Positions 11,201-64,000 of a stretch of DNA of 64,000 nt are shown one piece after another. The DNA is taken from assembly GCA_040223695.1 (NCBI GenBank), contig JAVKFU010000015.1, positions 106,534 through 170,533 of the forward strand. Direction: 5' to 3'. This DNA comes from Deltaproteobacteria bacterium (lineage in GTDB: Bacteria > Desulfobacterota_D > UBA1144 > Nemesobacterales > UBA2774). The notes under the pieces are model-generated. The model had not been told where the DNA came from, did no database searches, and saw only the letters and a program-made list of their open reading frames with translations. Numbering within the stretch: position 1 is the stretch's first letter; the number at the start of each line of letters is the position of its first letter. The position numbers and the translations under genes were made by a program.

Positions 11201-11304
11201 CGCCTTTCGAGCTCTTTATTATTTTTCTTCAAACGGGAAACCTGGCGGCGTAGGTCCCCGGTCTCGCTGATCAGCTGTGCTTTGGATATATCTTCATATG
11301 CCAT
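8296..11304 (-). CDS. Hybrid sensor histidine kinase with multiple PAS and GAF domains and a C-terminal receiver domain.
   Basis: PAS S-boxes, GAF regions, HisKA ([18 protein letters not shown]), HATPase_c (DDGPGIP...[18 protein letters not shown]) and a receiver domain ([10 protein letters not shown]...[15 protein letters not shown]). Confidence 0.85.
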
Positions 11305-21568: not shown

Positions 21569-22285
21569 CTATCTGGTCTGATGTGTATGATGAGCGTGTT
21601 TATCGCTCGTTGAAGGGATGAAGTGAATGGAGAAATTAACCAGCCCCACAAGAATTAAGATTATCCCCGCTACAACTGTCAGTCTCCTCGGCGCTCTCCG
21701 CATGCCCTTCTTGTATATAAAAGGGAATGCGGATAAGGCGGGTACTGTTCCGAGCCAGAATATGAAGAGTACCGCCGCTCCGTAGAGCGGGCTTTTTGTC
21801 GCTACCGACCCTATTACGAATATGTAGACCCAGCCGCAGGGGATGAATCCGTTTACAATTCCGAGTGTAAGGGACGCCGTTGGCTTGCTCTGCGTTAAGG
21901 ACCATTTTGCCGGGAGCCGGAGGAGTGAAGAGATGAACTTCGCCGGTATCAACTCAAGCGGCTTTCCCGTAATAAGCTTATAGCCTGTATAGATAAGGAA
22001 TGCCGATATTATTATTGCAGAAAATGTAGCTACAACGGGGTAGTTATTTGAGAGAAAAGCTTCCCCCAGGAGTCCCGCAAGTGCGCCGAGCGCCAGGTAG
22101 CTAAACAGCCGCCCTAGGTGATAGAGGCTCAGGTAGCCGAAATTATTGTTCACCGTAACGGCTATGGGCCCGCACATCGTAACACAGTGCGAGCTCCCGA
22201 GCAGGCTCGCTATAAAAACACCCAGCGGCACCGATAAAAAGGACCACTGCGCTATTAAATCATTAAATAAACCTGGGTCCGACAA
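21569..22285 (-). CDS. DsbD_2/UreH-like polytopic membrane protein. It is the last gene of the cco operon.
   Basis: About 6 TM helices with a conserved SSHCVTMCGPI motif characteristic of the cytochrome-biogenesis-like DsbD_2 family. The family assignment is from memory. Confidence 0.5.
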   Translation of the reverse strand: MSDPGLFNDLIAQWSFLSVPLGVFIASLLGSSHCVTMCGPIAVTVNNNFGYLSLYHLGRLFSYLALGALAGLLGEAFLSNNYPVVATFSAIIISAFLIYTGYKLITGKPLELIPAKFISSLLRLPAKWSLTQSKPTASLTLGIVNGFIPCGWVYIFVIGSVATKSPLYGAAVLFIFWLGTVPALSAFPFIYKKGMRRAPRRLTVVAGIILILVGLVNFSIHFIPSTSDKHAHHTHQTR

Positions 22286-23687
22286 GTTTTACGTCCTCGC
22301 CCGTTTTAATTGTATTGTCCTTAGGGTCAATGAAATTGAGTCTTATTGACCGTGTCCCCTGACTGCCCGTAACATCTTGAGGAAACTTTACGAAAAAGTG
22401 GACAGTAGCGTCCTTTCCCGCCTCAAGATTAATTATCTCGTTCTGCGAAACGATCTCGACGTTTTTTTTCTTCCATTCCTGAGGCAGCGTCATCTTGAGG
22501 CTTACATTGTCAAAAGTCTGATTTTTCATGTGCATTTTAAAGTGGTTTATTATTTGCTCGCCCTGCTCGTTTTTAATCACCTGAAAGGGAGAATCCTTGC
22601 CTCTTAGAACGGTGATGATTATATCCTCACGCTTCGATACGGAAAAAACGAGAGCCGCCATTACGGCGGCGAGCAGCACGGTATATATCGCTACTCTCGG
22701 TCTGAACCATTTCGTGGTCAATCTCTCGAGGCTGTTTCCCGTTGCGTATCTGATCAACCCCTTCGGCTTGTCGATCTTTTCCATTACCTCATCACAGGCG
22801 TCTATACAGGCGGTGCAGCCTATGCACTCGAGCTGAAGGCCGTTTCTTATGTCAATCCCCGTGGGACATACCGACACGCACTTATAACAATTTATACAGT
22901 CGCCCTCGGCCTCACCGTGCCCGGTTTTCCCCCTCCGGGGCTCGCCCCTGACCGGGTCGTATGAAACCGTAAGCGAATCGTCGTCCATGAGCACCGACTG
23001 GAACCTGCCGTACGGGCACATTATGATGCAGAACTGCTCCCTGAACCAGCCGAAGTCGAACAGAAAAACCGCTGTCAGAAAGGCCATTATGACAAAGATG
23101 GTCCAGTTCTGCTGCGGGTTGTGCCGGGTCATTTCCACAAGCCTGTCGGCGCCTACAAAATAGGCGAGAAAGCTGTGAGCGATAATCAGGCTCACTATAA
23201 GAAAGAGGGACCAGAGCACAGAGAGTTTAAAGAATTTTTTTATTCCCCAGGGCGCCCTTGCGAGGTTACGCTGCTGGATGTGGCTCCCGATAATCCAGTA
23301 CTCAAGCCTTCTGAATATACCGTCTATAAAAACAGTCTGAGGGCACGCCCATCCGCACCATACCCTTCCCCACACGGCGGTTATGAACGCAAGCCCTATT
23401 GTCAGAAACGCCAGTATAAAAAATATGAGAGGGGCGTCATGCGCGAAAAAAGTGAGACCGAATATAGAAAATTTTCTTTCTCCGATATTGAGGAGCAGGG
23501 CTTGATGTCCCCCGATTTTGATCCACGGAAGAAGGAGGAAAAAGATAACCAGAAAAATCTCGGTTACCGTTCTTGCTTGTCTCCAGAAACCCTTTACCCG
23601 CTCAGGGAATATAAAAACACGCTTGCCGGTCTCGTCCATTGTAGCCGGGCGTTCATCAGGCAGTTGTCTCTGATCCAGTACTTTCAT
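22263..23687 (-). CDS. ccoG: cbb3 oxidase accessory protein CcoG/FixG (membrane-bound 4Fe-4S ferredoxin).
   Basis: Motifs GRVWCGWACPQ and two ferredoxin CxxCxxCxxxCP motifs (CINCYKCVSVCP, CIGCTACIDAC). The start is chosen at the ATG that overlaps the ccoP stop (ATGA). The 39-aa Arg-rich extension in the ORF track is probably spurious. Confidence 0.8.
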   Translation of the reverse strand: MKVLDQRQLPDERPATMDETGKRVFIFPERVKGFWRQARTVTEIFLVIFFLLLPWIKIGGHQALLLNIGERKFSIFGLTFFAHDAPLIFFILAFLTIGLAFITAVWGRVWCGWACPQTVFIDGIFRRLEYWIIGSHIQQRNLARAPWGIKKFFKLSVLWSLFLIVSLIIAHSFLAYFVGADRLVEMTRHNPQQNWTIFVIMAFLTAVFLFDFGWFREQFCIIMCPYGRFQSVLMDDDSLTVSYDPVRGEPRRGKTGHGEAEGDCINCYKCVSVCPTGIDIRNGLQLECIGCTACIDACDEVMEKIDKPKGLIRYATGNSLERLTTKWFRPRVAIYTVLLAAVMAALVFSVSKREDIIITVLRGKDSPFQVIKNEQGEQIINHFKMHMKNQTFDNVSLKMTLPQEWKKKNVEIVSQNEIINLEAGKDATVHFFVKFPQDVTGSQGTRSIRLNFIDPKDNTIKTGEDVKLVGPRFI

Positions 23688-24253
23688 TTGCGCTCTATCT
23701 TCTCTCCCTGAGGAGCTTTCGCCCCGGGGGGATCGGTCCCCTGCAAACCATGTACGTAAACCGCGGTGCTCTCTATTACGTCCGCGGGTATGACGCCTTT
23801 CCACGGAGGCATACCCTTGTCGGGCACACCCTCGTTCACGACGGTAAGTATGGACGATATAGATCCGTCTCCGTGTATCCAGTACTCATCCGTCAGGTTA
23901 GGCCCGATAAGTCCCTGCCCCTTATCCCCGTGGCAGGGCATGCATTTGGCCATGAATTCCGCCTTCCCCTGCTCGGTAACTTCCCGGTTTGTAACCAGAG
24001 CGACCAGGTCCTCTTCGGTTTTTTCCCGGGCGGACCCGAGGGCCTCCTGCTGCTCCTCCCTTATAACACTCATCTCGCTCGCCAGCTCCTCGTCCAGCGT
24101 CGGTCCCCCCATAAACTGATAATAGACGAAATAGATAACCGCGAAAATTATGGTTATATAAAAGGTCGCAAGCCACCAGCCGGGGAGGGGATTATTAAGC
24201 TCTCTTATCCCGTCGTACTCATGATCTTTAATTAATTCGTCTTTTTCGGTCAT
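23684..24253 (-). CDS. ccoP: cbb3-type cytochrome c oxidase subunit CcoP/FixP, apparently mono-haem.
   Basis: CcoP N-terminus (DHEYDGIRELNNPLPGWW), one CMPCHG haem motif and a GMPPW Met-ligand region. It is only 189 aa. Confidence 0.75.
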   Translation of the reverse strand: MTEKDELIKDHEYDGIRELNNPLPGWWLATFYITIIFAVIYFVYYQFMGGPTLDEELASEMSVIREEQQEALGSAREKTEEDLVALVTNREVTEQGKAEFMAKCMPCHGDKGQGLIGPNLTDEYWIHGDGSISSILTVVNEGVPDKGMPPWKGVIPADVIESTAVYVHGLQGTDPPGAKAPQGEKIERK

Positions 24254-24393
24254 TGATTTTCCTCCTTTTTTGGCTCACCCTCATCTTCGAGGGGTAGCAT
24301 CTCCATTTCATGAATCTCCTCTTTCGGTCTCTTGAGAGCCCATATCACAAGAACGACAAATGCCGTTAAAAAGATAATCAGGGCTATTATCAC
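24250..24393 (-). CDS. ccoQ: Small CcoQ-like single-TM subunit. It is below the ORF-track size cut-off.
   Basis: A GTG-initiated 47-codon ORF (IIALIIFLTAFVVLVIWALKRPKEE...) lies between ccoNO and ccoP. Its stop overlaps the ccoP ATG (ATGA). Confidence 0.5.
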   Translation of the reverse strand: MIIALIIFLTAFVVLVIWALKRPKEEIHEMEMLPLEDEGEPKKEENQ

Positions 24394-24422
24394 TATTTCC
24401 GCATTCTGAAAATACGATAGAG

Positions 24423-26585
24423 CTACCTGTTTGATGTCGTTACCTCCTCGGTAGCGGTCTTTTTGCCGAGGCTCTGCAAATAAGCGATAAGCGCGACGAC
24501 CTCGGTGTCCTTTATCAAAGTAAGTGAGGGGTCCTGGCTGAGCAGCTCCTCGTATATTCGGGCAGCCTCCTTTTCCGCGTTTATGTCGGCGTCTGAAACC
24601 TCCCGGTCGTCGTAAGGCACACCCAGCATTTTCATCACGCTGAATTTCTTTCTCAGTATGTGATAATCGATTTTATTTGCCGCGAGCCACGGGTAAGAGG
24701 GCATGATGGAATTGGGCGTAATTTCCCTTGGGTTTATCATATGGCGGAGATGCCACATATCCGGATATTTACCTCCGACCCTGGCAATGTCCGGCCCCGT
24801 TCTTTTTGAGCCCCATTGAAAGGGCCTGTCATACATCGATTCCGCTATAGTGGAGCTTGGACCGTACCTGAGCACATCGAACGGGAGCTTCCTTATCATC
24901 TGCGAGTGGCACACGTAGCACCCCTCCCTGATGTAAATATCCCTTCCCGCGAGCTCAAGCGGCGTGTACGGCTCCGTTTTTTCAGCCGACGGGAGATACT
25001 TGTAGATCGAGAGAGTGGGTATTATTTCGATTACGGAACCCACCGCGATTGATATGAAAAGAAGCACGGTGAAAACGAGGCTAAGCGCCTCAAGTTTTCT
25101 GTGGCCGCTACCGACCGCCGTCGGGTCGGCTGAAAGCGGGGCGGCTTCAACTACGGTGACTTTTTTCTCCCTGGGCGCGTGTTTAATGGTTACCCATACG
25201 TTGTATATGAGCATGAGGAAGCCCGTGAGGAAAAGCGCGCCGCCTGCGAACCTGACCCAGTAAAGAGGCACTATTCTCATCACCGTTTCAACAAAGTCGG
25301 GATATACGAGCTGTCCGTTCTCGCCTATTGCCTGCCACATGAGCCCCTGAGTAATGCCGCTTGCCCACATCGAGATGTAGTACAGAAGAATTCCGAGAAA
25401 TCCTATCCAGAAATGCCAGTTCATGAGTCTCTGGCTCCGCATCTTCGTATTCCAGAGCTTCGGCACCAGGTAGTAGATTATTCCGAAGGTAAGGAACCCG
25501 TTCCATCCGAGTGTGCCGCCGTGCACATGGCCGATTATCCAGTCGGTATAGTGGGCGAGGGAGCTGACCGATTTTATCGACAGTAAAGGGCCTTCGAAGG
25601 TGGACATACCGTAAAAAGTCACTGCCACGGCCAGGAATTTAATAATCGGGTCCGTGCGGAGCTTGTGCCATGCTCCCCTGAGCGTGAGAAGGCCGTTAAT
25701 CATGCCGCCCCAGCTCGGCGCCCAGAGCATTACGCTGAAAATCATGCCGAGGGTCTGCGCCCAGTCGGGAAGCGCGGTATTCAAAAGATGGTGAGGCCCC
25801 GCCCATATGTATATGAAAACGAGGGACCAGAAATGGATGATTGAGAGCTTATAGCTGTAAATAGGCCTGTTGGCTGCTTTGGGCACGTAGTAGTACATCA
25901 GTCCCAGAAACGGCGTCGTGAGGAAAAAAGCGACGGCGTTATGGCCGTACCACCACTGAACGAGAGCGTCCTGTACTCCGGCGTACACAGGATAGCTTTT
26001 AAGAAACGCGACCGGTATTTCGATCGAGTTCACTATATGGAGCAAGGCCACCGTAATAATCGTGGCTATGTAAAACCATATCGCTACGTACAGATGCTTT
26101 ACTCTTCGTATGGCGATTGTTCCGAAAAAATTAGCGGCGAAGACTACCCAGACGACCGCGATTGCCACATCGAGCGGCCACTCAAGCTCAGCGTATTCCT
26201 TACTCATGGTGTAGCCTAAGGGCAGTGTAATCAGCGCGCCTACGATAATAAGCTGCCAGCCCCAGAAATGGAACTTGCTCAGAAAATCGGAGTAGTTACG
26301 TGTTTTAAGGAGCCTCTGCGTAGAGTGATATATGCCCGCGAAGATTATATTTCCGGCAAACGCGAAAATTGCAGCGTTTGTGTGGAGAGGCCTTATCCTC
26401 CCGAACGTAAGCCACGGGATCTCCAGATTTGCCGGCCAGAATGCCAGCTGGAGCGCTGCAAGAAGCCCGACCATAAACGCCGCCGCTCCCCAGAAAATTG
26501 TTGCATAGAGAAACATCTTTACGATTTCATCGTCGTAAACAACCTTCTCCAGAACTGTGGATTTAGGTCCGTTGTCCTGACTCAT
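24423..26585 (-). CDS. ccoNO: cbb3-type cytochrome c oxidase fused subunit I/II (CcoN-CcoO fusion).
   Basis: A 12-TM haem-copper oxidase domain with His ligands, followed by a CcoO-like mono-haem domain (EGCYVCHSQMIRKL...YPDMWHLRHMINPREI). Confidence 0.85.
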   Translation of the reverse strand: MSQDNGPKSTVLEKVVYDDEIVKMFLYATIFWGAAAFMVGLLAALQLAFWPANLEIPWLTFGRIRPLHTNAAIFAFAGNIIFAGIYHSTQRLLKTRNYSDFLSKFHFWGWQLIIVGALITLPLGYTMSKEYAELEWPLDVAIAVVWVVFAANFFGTIAIRRVKHLYVAIWFYIATIITVALLHIVNSIEIPVAFLKSYPVYAGVQDALVQWWYGHNAVAFFLTTPFLGLMYYYVPKAANRPIYSYKLSIIHFWSLVFIYIWAGPHHLLNTALPDWAQTLGMIFSVMLWAPSWGGMINGLLTLRGAWHKLRTDPIIKFLAVAVTFYGMSTFEGPLLSIKSVSSLAHYTDWIIGHVHGGTLGWNGFLTFGIIYYLVPKLWNTKMRSQRLMNWHFWIGFLGILLYYISMWASGITQGLMWQAIGENGQLVYPDFVETVMRIVPLYWVRFAGGALFLTGFLMLIYNVWVTIKHAPREKKVTVVEAAPLSADPTAVGSGHRKLEALSLVFTVLLFISIAVGSVIEIIPTLSIYKYLPSAEKTEPYTPLELAGRDIYIREGCYVCHSQMIRKLPFDVLRYGPSSTIAESMYDRPFQWGSKRTGPDIARVGGKYPDMWHLRHMINPREITPNSIMPSYPWLAANKIDYHILRKKFSVMKMLGVPYDDREVSDADINAEKEAARIYEELLSQDPSLTLIKDTEVVALIAYLQSLGKKTATEEVTTSNR

Positions 26586-26767
26586 TTATCCTTTTCCTCC
26601 TTCGAATCTTGATTTCTTGGTTCGGTCTCGTAATCATCTATTAACATTCTGTGACCGGGGGTCTTGAGGTCGTCCCACTGCCCCTTTCGTGCGGCCCATA
26701 TGAAGGCAAGCAGGAAAATTAACGCCATGGCTATAGAAATTCCAAGCGTCAAGAAAATTATATTCAC
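26582..26767 (-). CDS. ccoS: cbb3 oxidase maturation protein CcoS/FixS.
   Basis: A 61-aa single-TM protein (FLTLGISIAMALIFLLAFIWAARKGQWDDLKTP). Overlaps both neighbours by 4 nt. Confidence 0.75.
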   Translation of the reverse strand: MNIIFLTLGISIAMALIFLLAFIWAARKGQWDDLKTPGHRMLIDDYETEPRNQDSKEEKDK

Positions 26768-29217
26768 GTCTTCGCCACCTTTCTCTTGGTATCGAGAATC
26801 GTCTGTCCGTATAATGTAGAGCCGATCAGAAGCAGCGAGCTTAGCGGCATAAGGACCGCCGCCGCGAGAGGCGTTATAAAGCCCGTCAGCGCGAATCCCC
26901 CCGCAGCTACGTTATAAATTATTGAAAAAACCGTGTTTCTTCTTATGGTTTCGCCAGTCGCATTGCCGTGATCGATAAGGTCCAGAATTGTGAAAAGGTC
27001 GTTGTTGAGTATGTACGCGTCGGATACTTTGAGACTTTCCTCGACGCTCCCCTGTATTGCTACGCTCACGTCGGATGAGGACAGCGCGCCTGCGTCATTC
27101 AGTCCGTCCCCTATCATAAGGGAGTTCCGGTTTTCACTGATTATTCTCGATTTGCCCTCGGGTATTTCCTCCCAGTACGCCTGTGAGTATGGGATTTGAA
27201 GCTTATCGGCCACATGCTTCACATTATTCTCCTTGTCGCCGGAAAGTATGAAAACTTTATACCCCCTCACCACAAGCTCGTTTATTACGAACTTGGCGTC
27301 TTCTTTCAGCGTATCCCCCAGAACTATTTCCGAGACCGGTTTTCCGTCTTTATGGACCACTATTTTAGTAGTGATAATTTCGTTCAGATCGTTTTGGCCG
27401 ATTACACTATTCTCGGACGTTAACCGGTAATGGTGCCCGTCTGCCACGGCTTCAATCCCTTCGGAGTATATGTGTCTGAAATCTCTGACTTCGGGCAGCG
27501 GGTAGTTGTTGTCCTTGAGATGAGCTGTGAGGGTGCGGGCTATCGGATGGTTCGATTTCTTCTCTATTGCGAGGATTGCGGCATAGTCTTTCTCCGAAAG
27601 CTCCCCGGAGTTCCACTTGAGGATTTTGAATACCCCGTTTGTAAGCGTGCCGGTCTTGTCGAAGAAGATTTTTTCGACAGACGGGAGCTTCTCGAAGTTC
27701 CCGGCGTCTTTAATCAGAAATCCCTTGGCCATCCCCGATTTCAGCGACAGTCCGTAGGAAAGCGGCAGTGCGAATACAAAGGCGCAGGGACAGGATATAA
27801 GCGTAAAGGCGATTACCCTTTCTAGCGCCTCGGAAGTATTGTAAAGATATGATATAGTGAAGAACGTAGCCACCGCGGCGATTCCCACTATCAGTGTGAA
27901 GACCGTGGAGTATTTGTCGCTGTATGTCGAGAGGCCGATTTTACCCCTGTAATTGCTTTCGACCTGATCCAGTATCTTCCCGATTCTGGTGGATTTCCCG
28001 GTTTTGGCTACTTTAAGAACCGCTTCGTCAGACTCGAGTATCGAGCCTGCGAATACGCTGTCTTTCCTCCTGACTGTCTCGGGAATGTTCTCGCCCGTAA
28101 GCACGGACAGGTTTAGATCGGCGTTTCGGGATAAAAGCTCGCCGTCAGCCGGAACGCGCTCCCCTTTGTGGAGCTTTATCCTCTGCCCCGGCCTGAGATT
28201 CTCGACGGGCTGATAAAAGAACTGCCGAGCCTTATCATCCCATATAAGAACCCGATTGGATGAAAACAGGCTCCGGCTCACCGGTTCTTTTCGCACTACC
28301 CTGTCCTGTACCGTTTTAAGAAGATATCTGCTTCCGAGAAGGAGAAGCACGAATGCGGTTATCGAGTCAAAATATATCTGGTCGCTTCCGTTAAAGTAGT
28401 TGTAAGCGCTCAGTACGAAACCGATCACGATGACGAACACGATCGGTATATCGACCGTAGCGCGTTTCATTCTGAGTGAGCTCAGTACGCTCTTGTAAAA
28501 GGGATAAGCGCAGTATGTGACCACGGGCAGAGACAGAAGAAGGTTGAGCAGCATAAAGTTCTCCGCAAACACTCCCCCCGCGCCGGAATAGACCGCCGCC
28601 GAAAGGAGCATTATATTTCCTGCGCAAACTGCCGCTACAGATAGTCTTATGAGCGATTTTCTGTTTTCCCGCCGTTTTAATTCCCGCGCCTCCTCATCGA
28701 TCCTTACGGGATGAGCCCTGTAACCGAATTTCTTCGCTATTACGGGGAAGGATGAGAAATTCCGTTCGGGGGTGAAATTAACTGTTGCGGTATTATCGGA
28801 CATGTCGAGCGAGACGGATTCGATTTCAGGGGTGTAATCGGGGATTTTCTCTATCAGCCACAAACATGCCGCACACTCGATTCCCTCCACGTAGAAATTC
28901 ATGGAGAGGGGGCTTTCTGCCGCCGTGTATAATTCGATAAAACTTTTCTGATTCAGGTATTCATAGTTCTCGGTTGATTCCGTATCTATTGGCGCGCCCG
29001 TTTTTCCGATATCCTGGGCGTCTTTGATTTTGTAGTAATTATCCAGGCCGAGAGTGTGCAGAAGCTCATAGACGGACATACATCCCCTGCAGCAGAAATT
29101 CCCGGATTCGGAAACTACCGTGTTCGAGGAATCAAGCTCCTCCCCGCAATGCAGGCAGCGGGCGGATTCCGGTTTGCTTTTGTGAGCGCTGTCTCTGGAA
29201 ACTGTAGTGATTGCCAT
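26764..29217 (-). CDS. ccoI: Copper-translocating P1B-type ATPase CcoI/FixI.
   Basis: N-terminal Cys-rich and HMA-like region (ECAACLW), TM CPC motif (ISCPCAFVFALP), DKTGTLT phosphorylation site and a GDGLNDAGAL hinge. Confidence 0.85.
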   Translation of the reverse strand: MAITTVSRDSAHKSKPESARCLHCGEELDSSNTVVSESGNFCCRGCMSVYELLHTLGLDNYYKIKDAQDIGKTGAPIDTESTENYEYLNQKSFIELYTAAESPLSMNFYVEGIECAACLWLIEKIPDYTPEIESVSLDMSDNTATVNFTPERNFSSFPVIAKKFGYRAHPVRIDEEARELKRRENRKSLIRLSVAAVCAGNIMLLSAAVYSGAGGVFAENFMLLNLLLSLPVVTYCAYPFYKSVLSSLRMKRATVDIPIVFVIVIGFVLSAYNYFNGSDQIYFDSITAFVLLLLGSRYLLKTVQDRVVRKEPVSRSLFSSNRVLIWDDKARQFFYQPVENLRPGQRIKLHKGERVPADGELLSRNADLNLSVLTGENIPETVRRKDSVFAGSILESDEAVLKVAKTGKSTRIGKILDQVESNYRGKIGLSTYSDKYSTVFTLIVGIAAVATFFTISYLYNTSEALERVIAFTLISCPCAFVFALPLSYGLSLKSGMAKGFLIKDAGNFEKLPSVEKIFFDKTGTLTNGVFKILKWNSGELSEKDYAAILAIEKKSNHPIARTLTAHLKDNNYPLPEVRDFRHIYSEGIEAVADGHHYRLTSENSVIGQNDLNEIITTKIVVHKDGKPVSEIVLGDTLKEDAKFVINELVVRGYKVFILSGDKENNVKHVADKLQIPYSQAYWEEIPEGKSRIISENRNSLMIGDGLNDAGALSSSDVSVAIQGSVEESLKVSDAYILNNDLFTILDLIDHGNATGETIRRNTVFSIIYNVAAGGFALTGFITPLAAAVLMPLSSLLLIGSTLYGQTILDTKRKVAKT

Positions 29218-54095: not shown

Positions 54096-55763
54096 ATGAT
54101 TAAAAGTATTCGGCTAAAATTCGGTAGGGCTCTAGGTCTGCCAGCAGAAGTTATTAGTACGACACCGGTAACCGTGTTTGTAGGCCCTAATAATTCGGGG
54201 AAAAGTAAAGTCTTAGATGAGATAAATCAATTTTGTCGCAATGGGCAAAAAAATAATTTAAATTTGATACTTGACCAAATTGAATTTGAGTCTTTCTCCG
54301 AACAAGTTGCTGAAATTAAAATAAAAAATAATTTGCTCACACCTAAACTTGGTGAATCTGTTTATTCCGATCATATAATAATTGGAAAGAAAGGTGTACG
54401 AAATCAGGTAAACAAGAAACAATTACTTGAAGCGTTCGCAAACCCAAATGCTAGGTCCCAACAATTTTGTCCTTGGTATTTAGCTTTTAATACTCTTATT
54501 CTAGATGGGAAAAATAGAATTAATCTCATAAATGAACAAGAAGCTGGTGATTTACAACATCCCCAAACCAGTTTTCAGGTTTTATTTTCGGATGATTCAA
54601 AGAGACAAGAAGTCAGAAGGATTATATTCGATGCTTTTGGCTATTATTTTGTAATTGATCCTACAAAGTTAGGACGTTTTAGGCTGAGGCTGGCATACTA
54701 TTATCCACAAGACATAAGGCAAGAGCGAGGTATTGATGAAGAAGCTGTGTCCTACCATTCAAAGGCCATGCCTATAGACGCGACGAGTGATGGGGTCAAA
54801 GCATTTACTGGTATTATAACTGAGATAATTGCTGGTGATCCGGTTGTATTATTGATTGACGAGCCAGAAGCATTTTTACATCCTGCCCTATCTTTCAAAT
54901 TAGGAAAAGAAATCGCTCGAGCTAGTTCTAAGTCTGAAAAAAGACTTTTCATTTCAACACATAGTACTAATTTTGTCATGGGATGTATTCAATCAGGCGC
55001 ACCAGTGACTATTGTAAGATTAACTTACCGTAACAGTTCTGCTACTGCTAGAATACTGCCACAAGATGATATTTTGAGGTTGATGAGGAATCCATTGTTA
55101 AGATCAACAGGGGTTTTGGCAGGACTTTTTTATGAATTTATAGTTGTTACTGAGTCCGATTCAGACCGTGCCTTTTATCAAGAAATTAATGAACGTTTAA
55201 TTTTGAATGATCCTGATAGAGGGATACCAAATTGTTTATTTTTAAATGCACAGAATAAACAAACAATACACACAATTATACGCCCTTTGCGAGAGCTGGG
55301 TATACCTGCCGCCGGAATTATAGATATAGATATAATAAAAGATGGTGGATCTGTCTGGACGAATTTTCTAAAGTCCGGTTTTGCGCCAGAGCTTGAACAT
55401 GCTTCACTTGCCTCACTACGAAGTTCAGTAAAGAAAAAATTTGAAGAAACTGGAAAAGATATGAAACGTGATGGTGGAGTTTCTGTTCTAAGTCCAACTG
55501 ACAAGGAAGCAGCCAATAATCTGTTTGACAAATTAGCTGATTATGGTCTCTTTGTTGTACGCAAGGGGGAATTGGAATCATGGCTGCCTGGGCTCCAAGG
55601 TGTGGGCCATGGTTCTGACTGGCTTATAGATATATTTGAAAAAATGGGTGAAGATCCCAGCTTGCCTAATTATATGAAGCCCAGTACCAATGACGTATGG
55701 GAATTTGTTGGGCAAATTAAGCACTGGTTGACAAATGCAAATAGAAAAGGAATTCCGTCGTAG
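54096..55763 (+). CDS. OLD-family ATP-dependent nuclease (ABC-type ATPase plus Toprim), class 1-like stand-alone.
   Basis: Walker A GPNNSGKS. Walker B/H-loop LLIDEPEAFLHP. C-terminal Toprim-like acidic motifs (FIVVTESDSDRAF, GIIDIDII). The gene is about 36% GC, against about 50% in neighbours, with AT-rich flanks. Confidence 0.6.
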   Translation: MIKSIRLKFGRALGLPAEVISTTPVTVFVGPNNSGKSKVLDEINQFCRNGQKNNLNLILDQIEFESFSEQVAEIKIKNNLLTPKLGESVYSDHIIIGKKGVRNQVNKKQLLEAFANPNARSQQFCPWYLAFNTLILDGKNRINLINEQEAGDLQHPQTSFQVLFSDDSKRQEVRRIIFDAFGYYFVIDPTKLGRFRLRLAYYYPQDIRQERGIDEEAVSYHSKAMPIDATSDGVKAFTGIITEIIAGDPVVLLIDEPEAFLHPALSFKLGKEIARASSKSEKRLFISTHSTNFVMGCIQSGAPVTIVRLTYRNSSATARILPQDDILRLMRNPLLRSTGVLAGLFYEFIVVTESDSDRAFYQEINERLILNDPDRGIPNCLFLNAQNKQTIHTIIRPLRELGIPAAGIIDIDIIKDGGSVWTNFLKSGFAPELEHASLASLRSSVKKKFEETGKDMKRDGGVSVLSPTDKEAANNLFDKLADYGLFVVRKGELESWLPGLQGVGHGSDWLIDIFEKMGEDPSLPNYMKPSTNDVWEFVGQIKHWLTNANRKGIPS

Positions 55764-56376: not shown

Positions 56377-56703
56377 ATGAAAGAGTATGAAGTGATAATA
56401 GAAAAGCTTAAATCTAGACAGGCGGAGCTCCAGGACAGACTGAATAAAGTCGCGGAGTCGCTCAGGAAAACCCACGCGAAGGATTGGGAAGAGCAGGCAA
56501 TCGAGCGTGAAAACGAGGAAGTGGTCGAAGCGCTCGATGAGAGCATCCGCACCGAATTAAGCCAGATAACAGTCGCACTCGACAGAGTGGAAAAGGACGA
56601 ATACGGCATATGTTCAATTTGTGACGATCCTATCCCCACGGGTCGCCTGGAGGCATTGCCTTACACGGACCGCTGCGTAAGCTGCGCAAGCGAAATGGAG
56701 TAA
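56377..56703 (+). CDS. DksA/TraR-family C4 zinc-finger protein.
   Basis: N-terminal coiled coil and a C-terminal CxxC-N17-CxxC (CSICDD...CVSCAS). RBS GGAG. Confidence 0.65.
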   Translation: MKEYEVIIEKLKSRQAELQDRLNKVAESLRKTHAKDWEEQAIERENEEVVEALDESIRTELSQITVALDRVEKDEYGICSICDDPIPTGRLEALPYTDRCVSCASEME

Positions 56704-57079: not shown

Positions 57080-57126
57080 CCCGCTCATCCTGAGCGCACA
57101 CGGAGTGTGCAGTCGAAGGATGCCAC
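57080..57126. repeat. Solo copy of repeat module C, overlapping the 5' end of the transketolase ORF.
   Basis: CTCATCCTGAGCGCACACGGAGTGTGCAGTCGAAGGATGCC. The inner hairpin GCACAC-GGA-GTGTGC compares with GCACA-TGAAG-TGTGC at 51955. Confidence 0.7.
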
Positions 57127-57149
57127 TTATTTTAAGGAGCGAAAATTCC

Positions 57150-58016
57150 GTGGGAGTGACGGACGAACAGGTAGCCTATCTCGAAGATAAAGCGAATCTT
57201 ATAAGGGAAGATATTATTAAAATGCTTGAGGAAGCGGGCTCAGGGCATTCCGCCGGTTCTCTCGGCACCGCCGACATATTTGCCACGCTCTATTTTCATG
57301 TGATGAAGCATGACCCGAAAAATCCCGATTGGGAGGAGCGGGACAGGTTTGTTCTGAGTAACGCTCATATATGTCCCGTGCTCTACGCGACGCTGGCGGA
57401 ATCGGGCTACTTCCCTGTAGAGGAGCTGATGACTCTCAGAAAACTGGGATCGAGGCTCCAGGGCCATCCGCACCGCGGGACGGTTCCCGGACTCGAAGCT
57501 TCGGGCGGCCCGCTCGGACAGGGCATTTCCATCGCGGTAGGAATGGCGGTTGCCGGAAAAATGGACGGTAGCATGTCCGGGGTTTACTGCATGGTGGGGG
57601 ACGGGGAGATGGACGAAGGGCAGGTATGGGAAGCGATAATGTTTGCCGGGAAGAACAGGCTTCATAATTTCACTCTTATAATTGACAGGAACAACATTCA
57701 GATTGACGGCTTCACCGAGGACGTCATGCCGCTTGAGCCCTTAAAGGACAAGCTCGCGTCATTCGGATTTCACGTGATAGAGGTCGGGGGGCACGACATG
57801 AGAACGCTCATTGAGGCGTTTGAGGAGGCGCGGGCGGTATATGAGAAGCCCGTTGTCGTATTGGCGCACACCATACCGGGGAAGGGTGTCGATTTCATGG
57901 AGTTCAAGCCTGAGTGGCACGGTAAGCCGCCTAATAAAGAGGAGGCTGAAAAAGCGCTTGATGAGCTTGACGAGCTGAGATCTCTCGGCGGAAAGATAAC
58001 CTGCGAACATGAGTAA
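57150..58016 (+). CDS. Transketolase, N-terminal (thiamine-diphosphate-binding) subunit of a split enzyme.
   Basis: TPP-binding blocks (GSGHSAGSLGTADIFATLYF, GDGEMDEGQVWEA). GTG start after an AAGGAG RBS. The ATG at 57105 lies inside a repeat element. Confidence 0.75.
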   Translation: MGVTDEQVAYLEDKANLIREDIIKMLEEAGSGHSAGSLGTADIFATLYFHVMKHDPKNPDWEERDRFVLSNAHICPVLYATLAESGYFPVEELMTLRKLGSRLQGHPHRGTVPGLEASGGPLGQGISIAVGMAVAGKMDGSMSGVYCMVGDGEMDEGQVWEAIMFAGKNRLHNFTLIIDRNNIQIDGFTEDVMPLEPLKDKLASFGFHVIEVGGHDMRTLIEAFEEARAVYEKPVVVLAHTIPGKGVDFMEFKPEWHGKPPNKEEAEKALDELDELRSLGGKITCEHE

Positions 58017-59001
58017 TAAACTGAACGATAAAATGCATCTGGCGGCGAATATATTCAACGGACCCGATCAGGTTCCGCAGAGAAACGGCTACGGCGAGGG
58101 GGTCGTGGAAGCCGGCAGGGCGAATGAAAACGTGGTCGTTTTGTGCTGCGACCTTACGGAGTCCACGAGATCGGCCGAGTTCAGGGAAACATTTCCCGGC
58201 AGGTTCGTGGAGATAGGCATAGCCGAGCAGAATATGGCCGGTATAGCCGCCGGAATGGCCTTCTCGGGAAAGATACCGTATATATCATCCTACGCTACGT
58301 TCAGTCCCGGCAGAAACTGGGATCAGATACGTGTCAGCGTCTGCTACAGCATGGCCAACGTCAAGATTATGGGCGCTCACGCCGGTATATCCGTAGGTCC
58401 CGACGGGGCTACGCATCAGGCCATGGAAGACATCGCTATAACGAGATGCCTTCCGAATATGACTGTCATAGTTCCGTGCGATTACCCGGAGGCGAAGAAA
58501 GCAGCGGTATCGATTGCGGAAATGAACGGCCCCGTTTATATGCGTTTTGGAAGGGAAAAGGTTCCGGTTATCACCACCGAAAAAACGCCTTTTCAAATCG
58601 GGCGCGCTGAAACCTACAAGAGGGGAGGGGACGTTACTGTCGTCGCCTGCGGCTCACTCGTGTACGAGGCATTGCTCGCTTCGGATGAGCTTTCCGGGGA
58701 AGGAATAGACGTGAGAGTGATTAATTGCCACACGATTAAACCTATCGACAGTGATACGATTATAAAAGCCGCGGAGGAAACGGGCGCTTTGGTGACCGCC
58801 GAGGAGCATCAGGTTCACGGGGGGCTTGGAAGCGCCGTGGCCGAGGTGGTCTCTCAAAACTGCCCTGTGCCGATTGAATATGTGGCGATGATGGACAGGT
58901 TCGGGGAGTCGGGAGAGCCGGATGAGCTTATGAAGAAGTTCGGCCTTAGCGCGCCCGGCATCGTTTCCGCGGTTAAACGGATCCTCAAGCGGAAGGAATA
59001 A
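58009..59001 (+). CDS. Transketolase, C-terminal (pyrimidine-binding plus C-terminal domain) subunit.
   Basis: Blocks FVEIGIAEQNMAGIAAGMA and the C-terminal domain. Overlaps the N-subunit gene by 8 nt. Confidence 0.8.
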   Translation: MSNKLNDKMHLAANIFNGPDQVPQRNGYGEGVVEAGRANENVVVLCCDLTESTRSAEFRETFPGRFVEIGIAEQNMAGIAAGMAFSGKIPYISSYATFSPGRNWDQIRVSVCYSMANVKIMGAHAGISVGPDGATHQAMEDIAITRCLPNMTVIVPCDYPEAKKAAVSIAEMNGPVYMRFGREKVPVITTEKTPFQIGRAETYKRGGDVTVVACGSLVYEALLASDELSGEGIDVRVINCHTIKPIDSDTIIKAAEETGALVTAEEHQVHGGLGSAVAEVVSQNCPVPIEYVAMMDRFGESGEPDELMKKFGLSAPGIVSAVKRILKRKE

Positions 59002-59274: not shown

Positions 59275-59829
59275 TTATTCAGGCGGGCTTATCTTATACC
59301 ATATGTTTTTCTGATACCCCACCGGGTCGGCATCGATAATCTTCTTGACGATTTCGGGCTTTGACCCTTTACATTTCCATTCATATACAGTTGAGCGGCC
59401 GGAGGCGTAAGCGGGGATGAATTCTGCGTTTGGATTGTCTTTACAGTAGTCGGTCATTCCCTTATTGGGGTTTTTGCTCGTGTCGGCCTTTTCTGTACAG
59501 GGCAGGTTTGCCCCCACGTTGCACGCGTAAACCCTGCCGTCCATGCAGCGCCAGTATGTGCCCCTCTTAAACACGTCCGTAGGGGCTGATTCCGGCGAGC
59601 CGAATTCTTTTTTCAACCCTTCCGCGATTGACTCAGGAACAGCGGGTCCCTTATATTCCGGGCCGGGTGAATCGACGGTTCCGGCAGCCTCGCAGTACGC
59701 AAAGGGGTCGTCGTATGTCTTCCCGCTCATGTCCGCTTTTTCCTCTGAGCTGCAGGATAAGATTGTTACAGCGATTAAAACCGGAAAGATAAGTATAAAT
59801 TGATTCAATCTGGATTTCATTTTTCTCAC
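59275..59829 (-). CDS. Lipoprotein of unknown function.
   Basis: Signal peptide with lipobox (ILSCS). Cys-containing soluble domain. No recognised family. Confidence 0.45.
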   Translation of the reverse strand: MRKMKSRLNQFILIFPVLIAVTILSCSSEEKADMSGKTYDDPFAYCEAAGTVDSPGPEYKGPAVPESIAEGLKKEFGSPESAPTDVFKRGTYWRCMDGRVYACNVGANLPCTEKADTSKNPNKGMTDYCKDNPNAEFIPAYASGRSTVYEWKCKGSKPEIVKKIIDADPVGYQKNIWYKISPPE

Positions 59830-60043: not shown

Positions 60044-60997
60044 GTGATACAATCATTACCGCTCAGCTGGTCACGAAACGATATTGATCGCCCCGGATTT
60101 GAGTCCGTCTATCTCCCACTGTCCGGGACAGTGTGGGCACACTCGGCGGAAATCCCTCTGGATTATAGTTTTGAACGGGTATTTACCGATTTATGCGCAG
60201 GCTTCGGGGGAAAAATATTAATCAGAGGGTGTAGCGGCGAAATTGCCGGGTTCCTTGCACGGAATGGGTTCGGGATCATAAGGACCGGAGCCGAGGCCGT
60301 AATAGATTTAAAGGACCTGGATAGAGAGCGGCCTTCTGTAAAAGAGCTGGCAAGAAGGGGGATCAGATGGGGAGAGGTGGAGGAAATTCCCTTTACGGGA
60401 TTAAACTCCGAAAGGGTATCCGGGTTTACCGCGCTCACTGCGCACGGCGGCAAGCCGAATTTGAAATATCTTTTCCGGGCAGGATTCGATCGCGCCACGA
60501 GGTGTTTTGTATTCAGGGCCGCCGATGAAGAATGGCTGGGTGTAGTTACCGTTTCAACCGTCGCGGAATCTTGTGCCCACACTGAGATGATTCTAAGGCA
60601 TAAAAAAGCCCCTGTGGGAGTTATGGAGGCCCTCTTCACCGGGGTAATGAATATTCTAAGAGAGGACGGCTACGAGGAGTTCAGCCTGGGCGAGGTGCCG
60701 TTTATAACCCCTCGAGCGCTCGGTTCTCATATTGGGTCTTCCAGCGATTCCCTTAAACAAAAAATGCTGTTTAGAGCGGGACGAGCTCTCAAATTCGCGT
60801 TTGATTACAAAGGTCTCTTTCGGTTCAAAAATAAATTTAATCCCGAATGGAGGCCCGTTTACGTCTGCGCGAACCCCGAGCTTTCCCTTTTAGCTCTGGC
60901 TGATCTGTTCATTGTAAGCCGCTACCTCGAGCTGTCACGCTCTGAATTGATATCTAACATCAAAGGCTATAACCCTTTATCCTCGACGTTTGGCTGA
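60044..60997 (+). CDS. Stand-alone DUF2156 protein (aminoacyl-phosphatidylglycerol synthase / MprF C-terminal catalytic-domain-like).
   Basis: C-terminal signature GLFRFKNKFNPEWRPVY typical of the lysyl-PG synthase catalytic domain. No flippase TM domain is present. Confidence 0.55.
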   Translation: MIQSLPLSWSRNDIDRPGFESVYLPLSGTVWAHSAEIPLDYSFERVFTDLCAGFGGKILIRGCSGEIAGFLARNGFGIIRTGAEAVIDLKDLDRERPSVKELARRGIRWGEVEEIPFTGLNSERVSGFTALTAHGGKPNLKYLFRAGFDRATRCFVFRAADEEWLGVVTVSTVAESCAHTEMILRHKKAPVGVMEALFTGVMNILREDGYEEFSLGEVPFITPRALGSHIGSSSDSLKQKMLFRAGRALKFAFDYKGLFRFKNKFNPEWRPVYVCANPELSLLALADLFIVSRYLELSRSELISNIKGYNPLSSTFG

Positions 60998-61162
60998 TCC
61001 GCATATATTTTGAATCACATAATTAAAACAGCTATATAATTAATATATTCTCGTAAAACATCTGTATTAATTATTCTAGCTTGACAGATTAATAGTTGAT
61101 ACATCTTTATGGTTTTCAGGGTGGCGGAAGTTATTTTTTATAACTGCATTATTGGAGGATGA

Positions 61163-64000
61163 ATGAGACTAACCGCTAAAGCTCTATTATCTCTATTGGT
61201 TTTTCTTGTTGCTTTTGGTTCTTGCGATACCGATAATAATAAAATTAATAACGGGCCTCTGCCTGCCGATCCGAACGAGTGGGTGTGTGTAGACTCGCTT
61301 GCGGGCGCGACCCTGGAGCAAATTGATCAGTTTTGCCAGAGCTTTTCTAATGCCGGAGACCCTGTCCCCGGATTTTTACAAAACCCTCCGCCCCTGTCTG
61401 AGCTGGATCTTAAGAATATATACGATGCCGAGCTTCAGGCCTTTGCCAGAGACAGGGTCTATGCAGCAGAGCTCGGTTGGGTAAGCGATATGAATTGGCG
61501 TATGACGGGCCCCTATGTCGGCGAAATAGGGAGCGGAGAGAGTTTCGGTGTACATCCCGCCGTAAGAATTTATTACTCTCCCGAGGTTATTGACTGGCTT
61601 TGTAATGACGGCGCGGGAGAGATTCCCGACGGCGCTATGATTGTAAAGGAGATGCATTCGATTAACGAGGAGCTCGATATAGCCCTCGATAGCGAGGGCT
61701 GTATGGTTATTAACGCCGATGTTGAGCCCGACTCATGGACGATAATGGTCAAGGAGAGCGGTGAGTCGCACGACGGATGGTACTGGGCCGGCTATTCGGT
61801 CGTCCAGGACCCTGTTACCTTCGCCTGGGAAATAGGGAACCCTCCAATTTTTGATGCGACTGCGGTAACGGGGGAGGAGTTTTTTGGCGGGGAAATAATA
61901 CCTTCTTCACCCAACCCCCTCTGGTATCCGACCGGTTATGTATTCTCCAGCACAAACAAGATTCCCGATGTCATATTCCCTTACAGTGAGTACGGAAACT
62001 ACTGCGTCAATTGTCATGCCTCCGCTGTAAGCGAGTTAACGTTTTCCTCTCTGGATAATGTTTTAACTCCGGGAATAGAGTACAAGCTCTTTACATCCGA
62101 TGAGCCCGGCAAAACATTTCCCGACGAATTGTTCGATGGGCTTGTTCACACTCCCGGTATCATAGCTCTGATTACTCAGGATTCGGCTTCGATAGCGGGC
62201 CTGACGGCAACTCGCGGGAACGGCGAAGTAGAAGGTTATGATTCTCCGTTTTCCGACCCTCTTCCGGAGCCTACGTCTCGGTTCTTGGAGTTTTATAATC
62301 AACTGGATGAAGTGAGTTTCCCAGAGGCCTGGATGCTCCGTCTGCCCGCTCAGACCTACGATCACGTAGTCTCGGCATCTACAGGTCCCGACCAGTTTAT
62401 TACGTCGGACCAGTGTATCGGTTGTCACGACGCTACTTACTCAAACGCGTCCTTTCCGAATATGATTCTGGAGAGAGACGTGAACGGCACGACTGAATTA
62501 ATCAATCTTTCTCCTTACGGAGAATGGAGCGCGTCGCCCATGGGCCTGGCCGGACGTGATCCCATCTTCTTTTCCCAGCTCCAGAGCGAGACAAACAACC
62601 TGCCTGAACTCACCACTTGCATCGAGAATACCTGCCTTCACTGTCACGGCGTGATGGGGCAGCGGCAGCTGGCTATAGATACTCCCGGTCAGGATACGGA
62701 GGGTTGCGAGGAATTATTCGCTATAGCCCCTCCTCCCGGAGTTCCGTTCGGGAAGCCCTTCAGCCTCGACATGGTGACCCAGTGGCCGGACTCTCCGAGC
62801 AATAAAGACCAGAAATACGGAGCGCTCGCCAGGGACGGAATTTCCTGCACCGTGTGTCACCATATTTCGGATGTCGATCTCGGACAGGAAGAGACTTTCA
62901 CCGGGAATTTTGTAACCGGGCCTCCTGATGAGATATACGGCCCTTATGAGGATTCGACCATAGTTCCCAAGCCGATGGAGAACGCTATCGGTATTACACC
63001 TAGGTTTGCCGATTACTTCGTAAGCGGGGACGCGTTCAGCTCCGATACCTGCGGGAGTTGTCATAACATCCTCCTTCCGATCATAACGAACGAGGGCGAG
63101 ATAATAGGCGCCAGCTACGAGCAGACGACACACCTTGAATGGGTTAACAGCGATTTTGCCCCGGGCGGCTCTGATTTCAAATCTTGCGCTGACTGCCATA
63201 TGCCGACGCATTACATGGGTGAAGACCTTTCATTTAAAATTGCTAATATAGAATCAAGCGATTTTGCTCCCACGACGAACCGTCTCCCCGATGCCGATAT
63301 TACTTTAACGGAGCGTGATACGTTCGCCCGCCACTCGCTACACGGTCTTAATATTTTCATCAATCAGATGTTTCAGCAGTTCCCCGTGATACTGGGCGCG
63401 CGGCAGATCGACTATATGACGGGAACCGCGACGGTCCCTTCACTGATTACCGGGCAAAAGTCCATGATAGAAATGGCTCAAAACGAGACAGCCGCCATAA
63501 AGGTACAGGAGCTGGAGATAACCCCGGAGGGTGAGTTGCGTGCCGTTGTTGAAGTCGTTAACCTCGTAGGACACTACCTTCCGTCCGGAGTAGGGTTCAG
63601 GCGGATATTCATTGAGTTCCTTGTCAGAGACATAGACGGCAATGTGCTATGGGCTTCCGGGCGTACGAATGAGCTGGGCGCAATTCTGGACGGCACCACC
63701 GACGAAGTTCTTCCCAGTGAGGAGCCGGTTAAATTCCCGGACGCGCCGTTTCAGCCCCATTACCAGGTCATAACGCAGCAGGACCAGGTCCAGATATATC
63801 AGGAGCTTATTAAAGATTCCGCCGGTAACCTGACTACAAGTTTTTTAAGGCGCGTCGAGGACGTAAAGGATAACCGCATTAGACCGAAAGGTTATAATCC
63901 CGAACTTTTCATAACCTTCTTTGACTCGCCGTTTATTAACGCGCTTGCCGAAACACACGGCCAGGCCGCGTCCGACCCCTATTACACCGACCCAGAGCTT
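61163..64000 (+). CDS. Large multihaem c-type cytochrome lipoprotein, 3'-partial (runs off the window). Absent from the supplied ORF track.
   Basis: GGAGG RBS, ATG at 61163 and a lipobox (VAFGSC). The frame is open for 946 codons to the window end. It has six CxxCH motifs (CVNCH, CIGCH, CLHCH, CTVCH, CGSCH, CADCH). Confidence 0.7.
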   Translation, partial: MRLTAKALLSLLVFLVAFGSCDTDNNKINNGPLPADPNEWVCVDSLAGATLEQIDQFCQSFSNAGDPVPGFLQNPPPLSELDLKNIYDAELQAFARDRVYAAELGWVSDMNWRMTGPYVGEIGSGESFGVHPAVRIYYSPEVIDWLCNDGAGEIPDGAMIVKEMHSINEELDIALDSEGCMVINADVEPDSWTIMVKESGESHDGWYWAGYSVVQDPVTFAWEIGNPPIFDATAVTGEEFFGGEIIPSSPNPLWYPTGYVFSSTNKIPDVIFPYSEYGNYCVNCHASAVSELTFSSLDNVLTPGIEYKLFTSDEPGKTFPDELFDGLVHTPGIIALITQDSASIAGLTATRGNGEVEGYDSPFSDPLPEPTSRFLEFYNQLDEVSFPEAWMLRLPAQTYDHVVSASTGPDQFITSDQCIGCHDATYSNASFPNMILERDVNGTTELINLSPYGEWSASPMGLAGRDPIFFSQLQSETNNLPELTTCIENTCLHCHGVMGQRQLAIDTPGQDTEGCEELFAIAPPPGVPFGKPFSLDMVTQWPDSPSNKDQKYGALARDGISCTVCHHISDVDLGQEETFTGNFVTGPPDEIYGPYEDSTIVPKPMENAIGITPRFADYFVSGDAFSSDTCGSCHNILLPIITNEGEIIGASYEQTTHLEWVNSDFAPGGSDFKSCADCHMPTHYMGEDLSFKIANIESSDFAPTTNRLPDADITLTERDTFARHSLHGLNIFINQMFQQFPVILGARQIDYMTGTATVPSLITGQKSMIEMAQNETAAIKVQELEITPEGELRAVVEVVNLVGHYLPSGVGFRRIFIEFLVRDIDGNVLWASGRTNELGAILDGTTDEVLPSEEPVKFPDAPFQPHYQVITQQDQVQIYQELIKDSAGNLTTSFLRRVEDVKDNRIRPKGYNPELFITFFDSPFINALAETHGQAASDPYYTDPEL

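Follow-up and report, generated by a model that had tools for sequence, protein, structure and literature searches.

A long reading frame at the end of a 64,000-nt stretch of DNA from a Deltaproteobacteria bacterium (hereafter the window; contig JAVKFU010000015.1, positions 106,534 to 170,533) raises the question of what a lipoprotein with six separate haem-binding motifs might do. The original prediction described this frame, at positions 61163-64000 of the plus strand, as the start of a multihaem cytochrome gene that runs off the window. We found that the gene is genuine and encodes a six-haem protein tethered to the membrane, with a cytochrome P460-type domain carrying the first haem ahead of a compact core carrying the other five. 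Cytochrome P460 is the kind of haem domain that nitrifiers use for hydroxylamine oxidation. Our preferred reading, in which we place moderate confidence at about an even balance, is that the protein is a stand-alone, periplasm-facing, lipid-tethered hexahaem redox enzyme, with a P460-type haem wired to a five-haem chain, and belongs to a large unnamed family.

The reading frame encodes a complete hexahaem lipoprotein

Direct translation of 61163-64000 (+) gave 946 codons with zero stops, as had been predicted, and the chance of a stop-free frame of this length is about (61/64)^946, roughly e^-45. Inspection of the sequence showed an ATG at position 61163, a Shine-Dalgarno-like GGAGGA (61154..61159, +) 3 nt ahead of it, and a 165-nt AT-rich spacer upstream. 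The missing downstream sequence, which had been called for, was recovered by exact-sequence look-up: Logan contig L001 was 100% identical to the window across 10,570 nt and holds the stop codon, 294 nt past the window end. The window contains codons 1-946 of a gene of 1043 codons. The complete protein (P0001) has 1043 aa and is listed in NCBI as 'hypothetical protein RIG61_04960' of a Deltaproteobacteria metagenome-assembled genome (MAG); its final 97 residues contain no CxxCH, hence there is no seventh motif. A stop codon or frameshift that re-sequencing might have revealed did not appear, the frame being intact and identical in this independent assembly, and a pseudogene was ruled out. Three minus-strand open reading frames (ORFs) overlapping the gene (61376..61657, 62063..62428 and 62714..63211) do exist and, as proposed earlier, were judged artefacts: Pfam gave no match to any of them, and the protein encoded on the opposite strand is conserved across phyla.

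The lipobox claimed for this protein was also found. Residues 1-21, MRLTAKALLSLLVFLVAFGSC, form a signal peptide (61163..61225, +) that ends in LVAFGS-C21, so that the lipobox reads FGSC, with Cys21 as the predicted lipidation site and Asp at +2. By pattern match, a signal peptide closing on a lipobox cysteine, the product is a predicted bacterial lipoprotein. A flexible tether follows (residues 22-33; 61226..61261, +), and the predicted local distance difference test score (pLDDT) was below 50 for residues 19-30.

We located exactly six CxxCH motifs, at residues 281, 418, 491, 562, 630 and 675 (nucleotide starts 62003, 62414, 62633, 62846, 63050 and 63185), in agreement with the predicted number, and none of the other frames of the window has more than one. 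All six were invariant in 78 close and 74 distant homologues, so the motifs passed the conservation check that had been suggested for them, and 118 of 119 long cluster representatives contained exactly six. The earlier figure of one haem per 100-150 residues is an average only: the actual gaps are 137, 73, 71, 68 and 45 residues, with haems 2-6 lying within 260 residues. The large non-haem domains expected between the haems did not materialise either, since haem 1 lies inside a P460-fold domain, haems 2-6 share one compact domain and the parts without haem follow towards the C-terminus. Inserts of a beta-propeller or substrate-binding kind between the haems were rejected.

An AlphaFold2 model of the protein, built from a 78-sequence alignment and, like all models used here, containing no haem, was confident (pLDDT 89, predicted template modelling score 0.91). 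Ahead of the P460-type domain it places a helical subdomain (residues 34-105; 61262..61477, +) with a conserved LPxDPxxWVC motif and a Cys42/Cys58 pair. Behind that domain comes an interdomain linker (residues 301-395; 62063..62347, +), of which residues 311-360 were of lower confidence (means of 53-74 for 10-residue pLDDT blocks). Neither segment has a Pfam match.

Haem 1 lies in a cytochrome P460-fold domain

Full-length searches of Pfam, NCBIfam and PDB sequences returned sub-threshold haem-motif matches only, and the P460 family PF16694 scored 19.3 bits on the full-length protein, under its cut-off. When residues 91-306 (61433-62080) were excised, PF16694 was the sole family match, with 27.9 bits against a gathering score of 27 (E 3.3e-6), and it also matched 53 of 72 homologous segments at E<=0.01 (best E 2.9e-12). 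We therefore treated residues ~106-300 (61478..62062, +) as a P460-fold domain carrying haem 1. The domain has the beta-sheet and the CxxCH near its C-terminus that characterise the P460/cytochrome c'-beta fold; this first motif is CVNCH, residues 281-285 (62003..62017, +). Because the excised domain passes the Pfam cut-off and the full-length protein does not, annotation pipelines and nitrogen-cycle surveys that rely on PF16694 probably miss most of the hexahaem family.

Other comparisons differed in strength. Alignment with hhalign to a P460 profile of 32 sequences gave a probability of 91% (E 1e-6), and to the single sequence of N. europaea P460 (NeP460) a probability of 2.9%, so that a clear match was obtained with the P460 family profile only. 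A search of PDB sequences with an N-terminal domain profile gave P460 at E 1.3-2, over the CxxCH only. Foldseek ranked P460 weakly (E ~0.17), and the AlphaFold2 model of the domain by itself was poor (pLDDT 57) and serves as a weak check only.

We then compared the haem-1 pocket with that of NeP460, using a sequence verified against 2JE2. Lys162 (61646..61648, +), in DGAMIVK162E, fell on Lys70, the haem cross-linking lysine of NeP460, in DGTVTVK70E, in three alignments (hmmsearch, hhalign with the single sequence and hhalign with the family profile). It was invariant in 78/78 close and 74/74 distant homologues and present in 112/118 representatives. P460 proteins are defined by this Lys-haem cross-link, and polar pockets are described as the catalytic type (PMC11928373). 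His131 (61553..61555, +) lies in the loop that gives the distal 'capping' residue in P460/c'-beta proteins and aligned with the cap Phe of NeP460; it was invariant in 74/74 homologues and present in 114/118 representatives. All solved P460/c'-beta members have Phe or Arg as the distal cap (PMC11928373), so a His cap is new.

In addition, motif comparison placed R135, in (R/K)IYYSPE, within one residue of the Arg44 position in R44TVYVDPE, the printed alignment being offset by one, and the position was Arg or Lys in 69/74 sequences. Arg44 has been tied to haem ruffling and cross-link formation (PMC11928373). K162, H131, D204 and W206 were invariant or nearly so over 36-100% identity. As judged from these alignments, the fold, CxxCH, Lys and Arg-like residue of the haem-1 pocket are P460-like, and the cap and the carboxylate are not.

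Haems 2-6 form a pentahaem core with an Ig-like stem

The remaining five haems lie in a pentahaem core with the fold of T. tepidum c552 (residues ~396-776; 62348..63490, +), whose CxxCH motifs occupy 62414-62428, 62633-62647, 62846-62860, 63050-63064 and 63185-63199 (+). Beta strands in the model then form an immunoglobulin (Ig)-like beta-sandwich (residues ~777-905; 63491..63877, +), and the family profile matched residues 291-337 of 5ze8 at E 3.4e-5. A five-haem helical domain followed by an Ig-like beta-sandwich is the arrangement of the 'PHC' fold, and haems 2-6 together with the sandwich constitute such a module, a five-haem helical cap plus an Ig-like stem. Geobacter ExtKL, since identified as the polysulfide reductase MccSep, a selenoenzyme, shares the fold (PMC11976967, PMC13510729). 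The model ends in a C-terminal alpha/beta domain (residues 906-1043; 63878..64000, +, clipped by the window end), for which no Pfam or NCBIfam match was found.

Candidate distal ligands of the core haems were strictly conserved at H724, H804, M605 and M680 across 119 representatives, and slightly less so at M434 (112/119) and H866 (98/119), which suggests from the residue types that the chain is a mix of bis-His and His/Met haems. His804 (63572-63574) belongs to an invariant Ig-like domain loop, G803-H804-x-x-P807-S-G, and was present in 119/119 sequences. In the broad family alignment, no cysteine outside CxxCH was found at a 93% conservation threshold.

The family is large, widespread and unnamed

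We next examined how far the family extends. A word-indexed search found 1965 significant relatives of about 880-1090 aa, named 'hypothetical' in every source that named them. In an exhaustive profile search, clusters formed at 50% identity numbered 789 at E<=1e-30 and 1945 at E<=1e-10. With each species represented by one genome, a scan showed that at least 573 species carry the family. They belong to Thermodesulfobacteriota, Binatia and Acidobacteriota (many Pyrinomonadaceae, and Thermoanaerobaculia), to the Gammaproteobacteria (Marinicella, Tahibacter, Aquimonas, Wenzhouxiangellaceae and Haliea), and to Bacteroidota, Chloroflexota, Deinococcota, Gemmatimonadota, Planctomycetota and Poribacteria. 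The hosts are mainly aerobes, including cultured aerobic heterotrophs of Marinicella and Tahibacter; the proteins of M. litoralis (WP_218961653.1), M. marina (WP_267174850.1) and Tahibacter soli (WP_263544954.1) are all annotated 'hypothetical protein'. A lipobox was found in 48/78 close homologues (~60%), most of the others starting with apparent ordinary signal peptides and a few being N-terminally truncated.

Several variants of the family were also observed. Six members (P0131, P0243, P0253, P0258, P0265 and P0267) carry Ala in the K162 column (for example 'MIVALEY') and keep His131; judged by these residues, they look like a c'-beta-like minority, parallel to the switch from P460 to c'-beta in stand-alone proteins. 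Now and then the gene is duplicated in tandem: a Thermodesulfobacteriota MAG has tandem hexahaem paralogues (locus L003, 8001-11078 and 11168-14179), and the OZ244991.1 genome has two hexahaem copies (P0011 and P0063).

The cytochrome gene is an orphan. When the ORFs around 75 loci were clustered, conservation of neighbours did not extend past the closest relatives, and neighbourhood clustering over 80 loci likewise found no partner outside close relatives. Most frequent beside it were genes for generic ABC ATPases and for a cyclic-nucleotide (cNMP)-binding-type membrane protein confined to Pyrinomonadaceae. In that lineage only (loci L039-L062; for example L039, 10742-11410), this membrane protein of ~220 aa often adjoins the cytochrome gene, and its C-terminal domain looks, from its sequence, like a cyclic-nucleotide-binding type. 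The two genes reported upstream of the cytochrome gene are both present in the window: a DUF2156/LPG_synthase_C gene (60044-60997; E 2e-22), and a divergently transcribed gene (59275-59829, minus strand) for a Cys-rich protein of 184 aa, which carries a lipobox (ILSC) and has no match in Pfam. They are syntenic with the cytochrome gene in the closest relatives only and are not conserved partners. A homologue of the Cys-rich protein gene lies directly upstream of the cytochrome gene in L003 (7262-7804).

Proposed function and alternative explanations

On our preferred reading, of a lipid-tethered enzyme, haem 1 would be an open, ligand-binding and probably Lys-cross-linked catalytic haem in a polar pocket. 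A small molecule would react there, most plausibly hydroxylamine (NH2OH) or nitric oxide (NO), with peroxide and O2 as alternatives; the choice of NH2OH or NO is a guess by analogy with P460 and, functionally, with hydroxylamine oxidoreductase (HAO). His131, perhaps with D204, may stand in for the missing carboxylate. Electrons would pass between haem 1 and the five-haem chain, part of which may be His/Met-ligated through M434, M605 and M680 alongside His724 and His804, and the chain would exchange them with soluble periplasmic carriers and hence with the respiratory chain. A cbb3 oxidase cluster is present in the same window (22263-29217). If so, the protein would act like a one-polypeptide analogue of HAO built from unrelated parts. 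PHC cores have also been found fused to truncated haemoglobins in cable bacteria (PMC11976967), which supports the joining of a PHC wire to a small-ligand haem domain as a general theme.

A more specific proposal is that the protein is an independently evolved single-polypeptide counterpart of HAO, in which a Lys-cross-linked P460 haem, with a distal His proton relay replacing Glu, oxidises NH2OH (or NO) and hands the electrons on, by way of five c-haems, to the aerobic respiratory chain. We regard this version as tentative and, on present evidence, doubtful.

Several observations weigh against the preferred reading. The distal carboxylate of NH2OH-oxidising P460s (Glu96 in NeP460, Asp102 in McP460) was not found: in the profile alignment the Glu96-equivalent column, T193 here, holds Thr, Ala, Val or Ser, with no acidic residue in any sequence, and a natural P460 without the carboxylate (NsP460) fails to oxidise NH2OH (PMC11928373). 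The K162 column holds Ala in 6/118 cluster representatives. His131 itself may be an iron ligand, and haem 1 would then be six-coordinate and serve in electron transfer. The gene context of the 75 loci gives no clue to the substrate. Finally, E659, S663, H804, R813 and R814 are invariant around the core and could mark a second or alternative active site; to judge from their conservation, the Ig-like loop with H804, the RR813-814 pair and the E659/W660/S663 motif could form a second functional pocket there.

In one alternative, which we consider unlikely, the catalytic centre lies in the pentahaem core, at haem 3 (C491; equivalent to haem 2 of MccSep/ExtKL) facing the His804 loop, and acts on a sulfur or other inorganic substrate. 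The P460-like haem would then be only an electron entry or exit point, or a gas-sensing accessory. This explanation leaves unaccounted for the conservation of the cross-link Lys and the cap His in ~95% of clusters. Moreover, the ExtKL family of NCBIfam scored 21 against a cut-off of 250, and with no cysteine outside CxxCH at 93% conservation in the broad family and an invariant H804 in the Ig-like loop, the His/Cys haem and Sec/Cys chemistry of MccSep are apparently absent.

Less likely again is that haem 1 works in the reductive direction, taking electrons from cytochrome c through the five-haem chain to detoxify H2O2, O2 or NO, so that the protein would be a peroxidase of the periplasm or a reductase of O2 or NO. 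The distal H131 and the Arg/Lys at R135 recall a peroxidase pocket, peroxidase-like activity has been reported for the Arg-capped c'-beta of N. europaea, and formation of the P460 cross-link uses peroxide chemistry (PMC11928373). The predominance of aerobic hosts, the orphan gene and the absence of the carboxylate required for NH2OH oxidation also fit this explanation. However, the potentials of cross-linked P460 haems are very low, -300 to -430 mV (PMC11928373), and suit substrate oxidation, and six haems exceed what known bacterial peroxidases need.

It is very improbable that the protein has no catalytic role and only carries or conducts electrons, for instance as part of an extracellular electron-transfer path or of a nanowire-like polymer. 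In favour are its nature as a multihaem lipoprotein and published comparisons of PHC-fold cytochromes with archaeal cytochrome nanowires and Geobacter ExtKL (PMC11976967). Against it, the protein has a low haem density, with 6 haems in 1043 residues, and in the 75 loci no partner gene of any kind, neither a porin nor another cytochrome, is conserved beside it. Many relatives have plain-looking signal peptides instead of a lipobox, the family occurs in aerobic heterotrophs, and the P460 domain has kept its ligand-pocket residues. The ratio of one haem per ~174 residues, the lack of conserved neighbours and the aerobic heterotrophic hosts were counted for an enzyme over a conduit.

Other features of the window

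The cbb3-type cluster (22263-29217, -) comprises a CcoG-like ferredoxin gene (22263-23804), a short FixP/CcoP gene (23684-24253), a single ORF of 720 aa that fuses CcoN (COX1) with CcoO (FixO) (24423-26585), and a gene for a CcoI-type P-type ATPase (26764-29217). A split transketolase is encoded by overlapping genes at 57105-58016 and 58009-59001 (+), the first for the N-terminal thiamine pyrophosphate-binding half and the second for the pyrimidine-binding/C-terminal half. An AAA_15/AAA_21 ATPase of 555 aa (54096-55763, +), with small unannotated ORFs alongside, is flanked by a DksA/TraR-type zinc-finger gene (56377-56703). The window also encodes two large sensor histidine kinases of PAS/GAF type, at 8296-11304 (-), a hybrid with a receiver domain, and at 16773-18689 (+).

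Novelty and significance

Full-text literature searches, a 2025 review of P460 (PMC11928373) and the source annotations contained no description of a fusion of P460 with a multihaem module. Both modules were already known; it is the fusion that was found nowhere in the searched literature or annotations.

To our knowledge, no natural electron acceptor has been established for the solved P460s, and the only other P460 cofactor we know of sits in HAO, the central nitrification enzyme. A P460-type domain that has a cross-linking lysine and is permanently joined to a chain of five haems would put P460 chemistry to use in a third way, in hundreds of species that are not nitrifiers. If NH2OH or NO is turned over, the family would bear on heterotrophic nitrification and on unexplained sources of nitrous oxide (N2O) in soils, oceans and wastewater. 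If the substrate is another one, such as peroxide, O2 or a sulfur species, the function of a large 'hypothetical' family would still be defined. Should the protein prove to be a counterpart of HAO, it would represent an unrecognised route of NH2OH/NO turnover and N2O formation in bacteria of soil and sea that do not nitrify (Acidobacteriota, Binatia, Xanthomonadales, Marinicella, Bacteroidota, Chloroflexota and others), and would supply the missing physiological electron outlet for P460 chemistry. The cultured hosts Marinicella litoralis, M. marina and Tahibacter soli make the question directly testable.

Comparison with known systems

The view that this protein differs from the dense Mtr/Omc-type decahaem proteins was borne out. 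PF22113 (MtrC/MtrF) scored 22.5 bits against a cut-off of 30 and TIGR03507 (OmcA/MtrC) 8.2 against 209, and with six haems instead of ten, an Mtr/Omc-type conduit was rejected.

Known P460s, such as N. europaea 2JE2/2JE3, Nitrosomonas sp. AL212 6AMG and M. capsulatus 6HIU (Pfam PF16694), are single-haem soluble proteins of 135-200 residues, described as structurally homologous homodimers, and the solved members of the P460/c'-beta superfamily have lengths of 135-196 residues, whereas here the P460 fold is one domain of a predicted hexahaem lipoprotein of 1043 residues. The position of the cross-link lysine is retained, and a cross-link is predicted. In contrast, the cap-loop residue is His here and Phe or Arg there, the Glu96/Asp102 position is Thr/Ala, and the long forms of the family have an insertion of ~55 residues between the sheet and the CxxCH. 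In c'-beta proteins (T. thermophilus 7EAD/8BRK, N. europaea 7S5O and M. capsulatus 6HIH), Phe or Met replaces the Lys and there is no cross-link; only the 6/118 family clusters with Ala look c'-beta-like.

HAO has eight haems and an inter-subunit Tyr cross-link and is a trimer. It is not homologous to the hexahaem family, and no HAO-type family of Pfam or NCBIfam matched in the full-length scans. The likeness is functional only: in both, a P460-type catalytic haem would be wired to a chain of c-haems within one enzyme.

With regard to the core, T. tepidum pentahaem c552 (5ZE8, 'PHC' fold) shares just 12-21% identity with it and has neither the P460 domain nor the extra C-terminal domain. MccSep/ExtKL of G. 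sulfurreducens resembles the present protein in its PHC architecture, a five-haem cap with an Ig-like stem that, according to the literature, contributes an active-site residue (PMC13510729). The match to ExtKL (NCBIfam NF040886) was weak and covered residues 538-687, with 21 bits against the cut-off of 250. Unlike MccSep, the present protein has no conserved selenocysteine or cysteine in its Ig-like loop and no haem-ligating Cys; that loop, the presumed counterpart of the loop with the catalytic Sec in MccSep, carries His. Because no cysteine outside CxxCH reaches 93% conservation in the broad family, His/Cys-Sec chemistry appears to be excluded, and a MccSep-type selenoenzyme was rejected. 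The hosts also differ, being mostly aerobes here and sulfur-reducing Desulfobacterota and Nitrospirota for MccSep/ExtKL. Finally, lPHCtX of cable bacteria (PMC11976967) likewise joins a PHC core to a separate haem domain that binds small ligands, but that domain has a globin rather than a P460 fold, and the fusion belongs to another lineage and follows another domain order.

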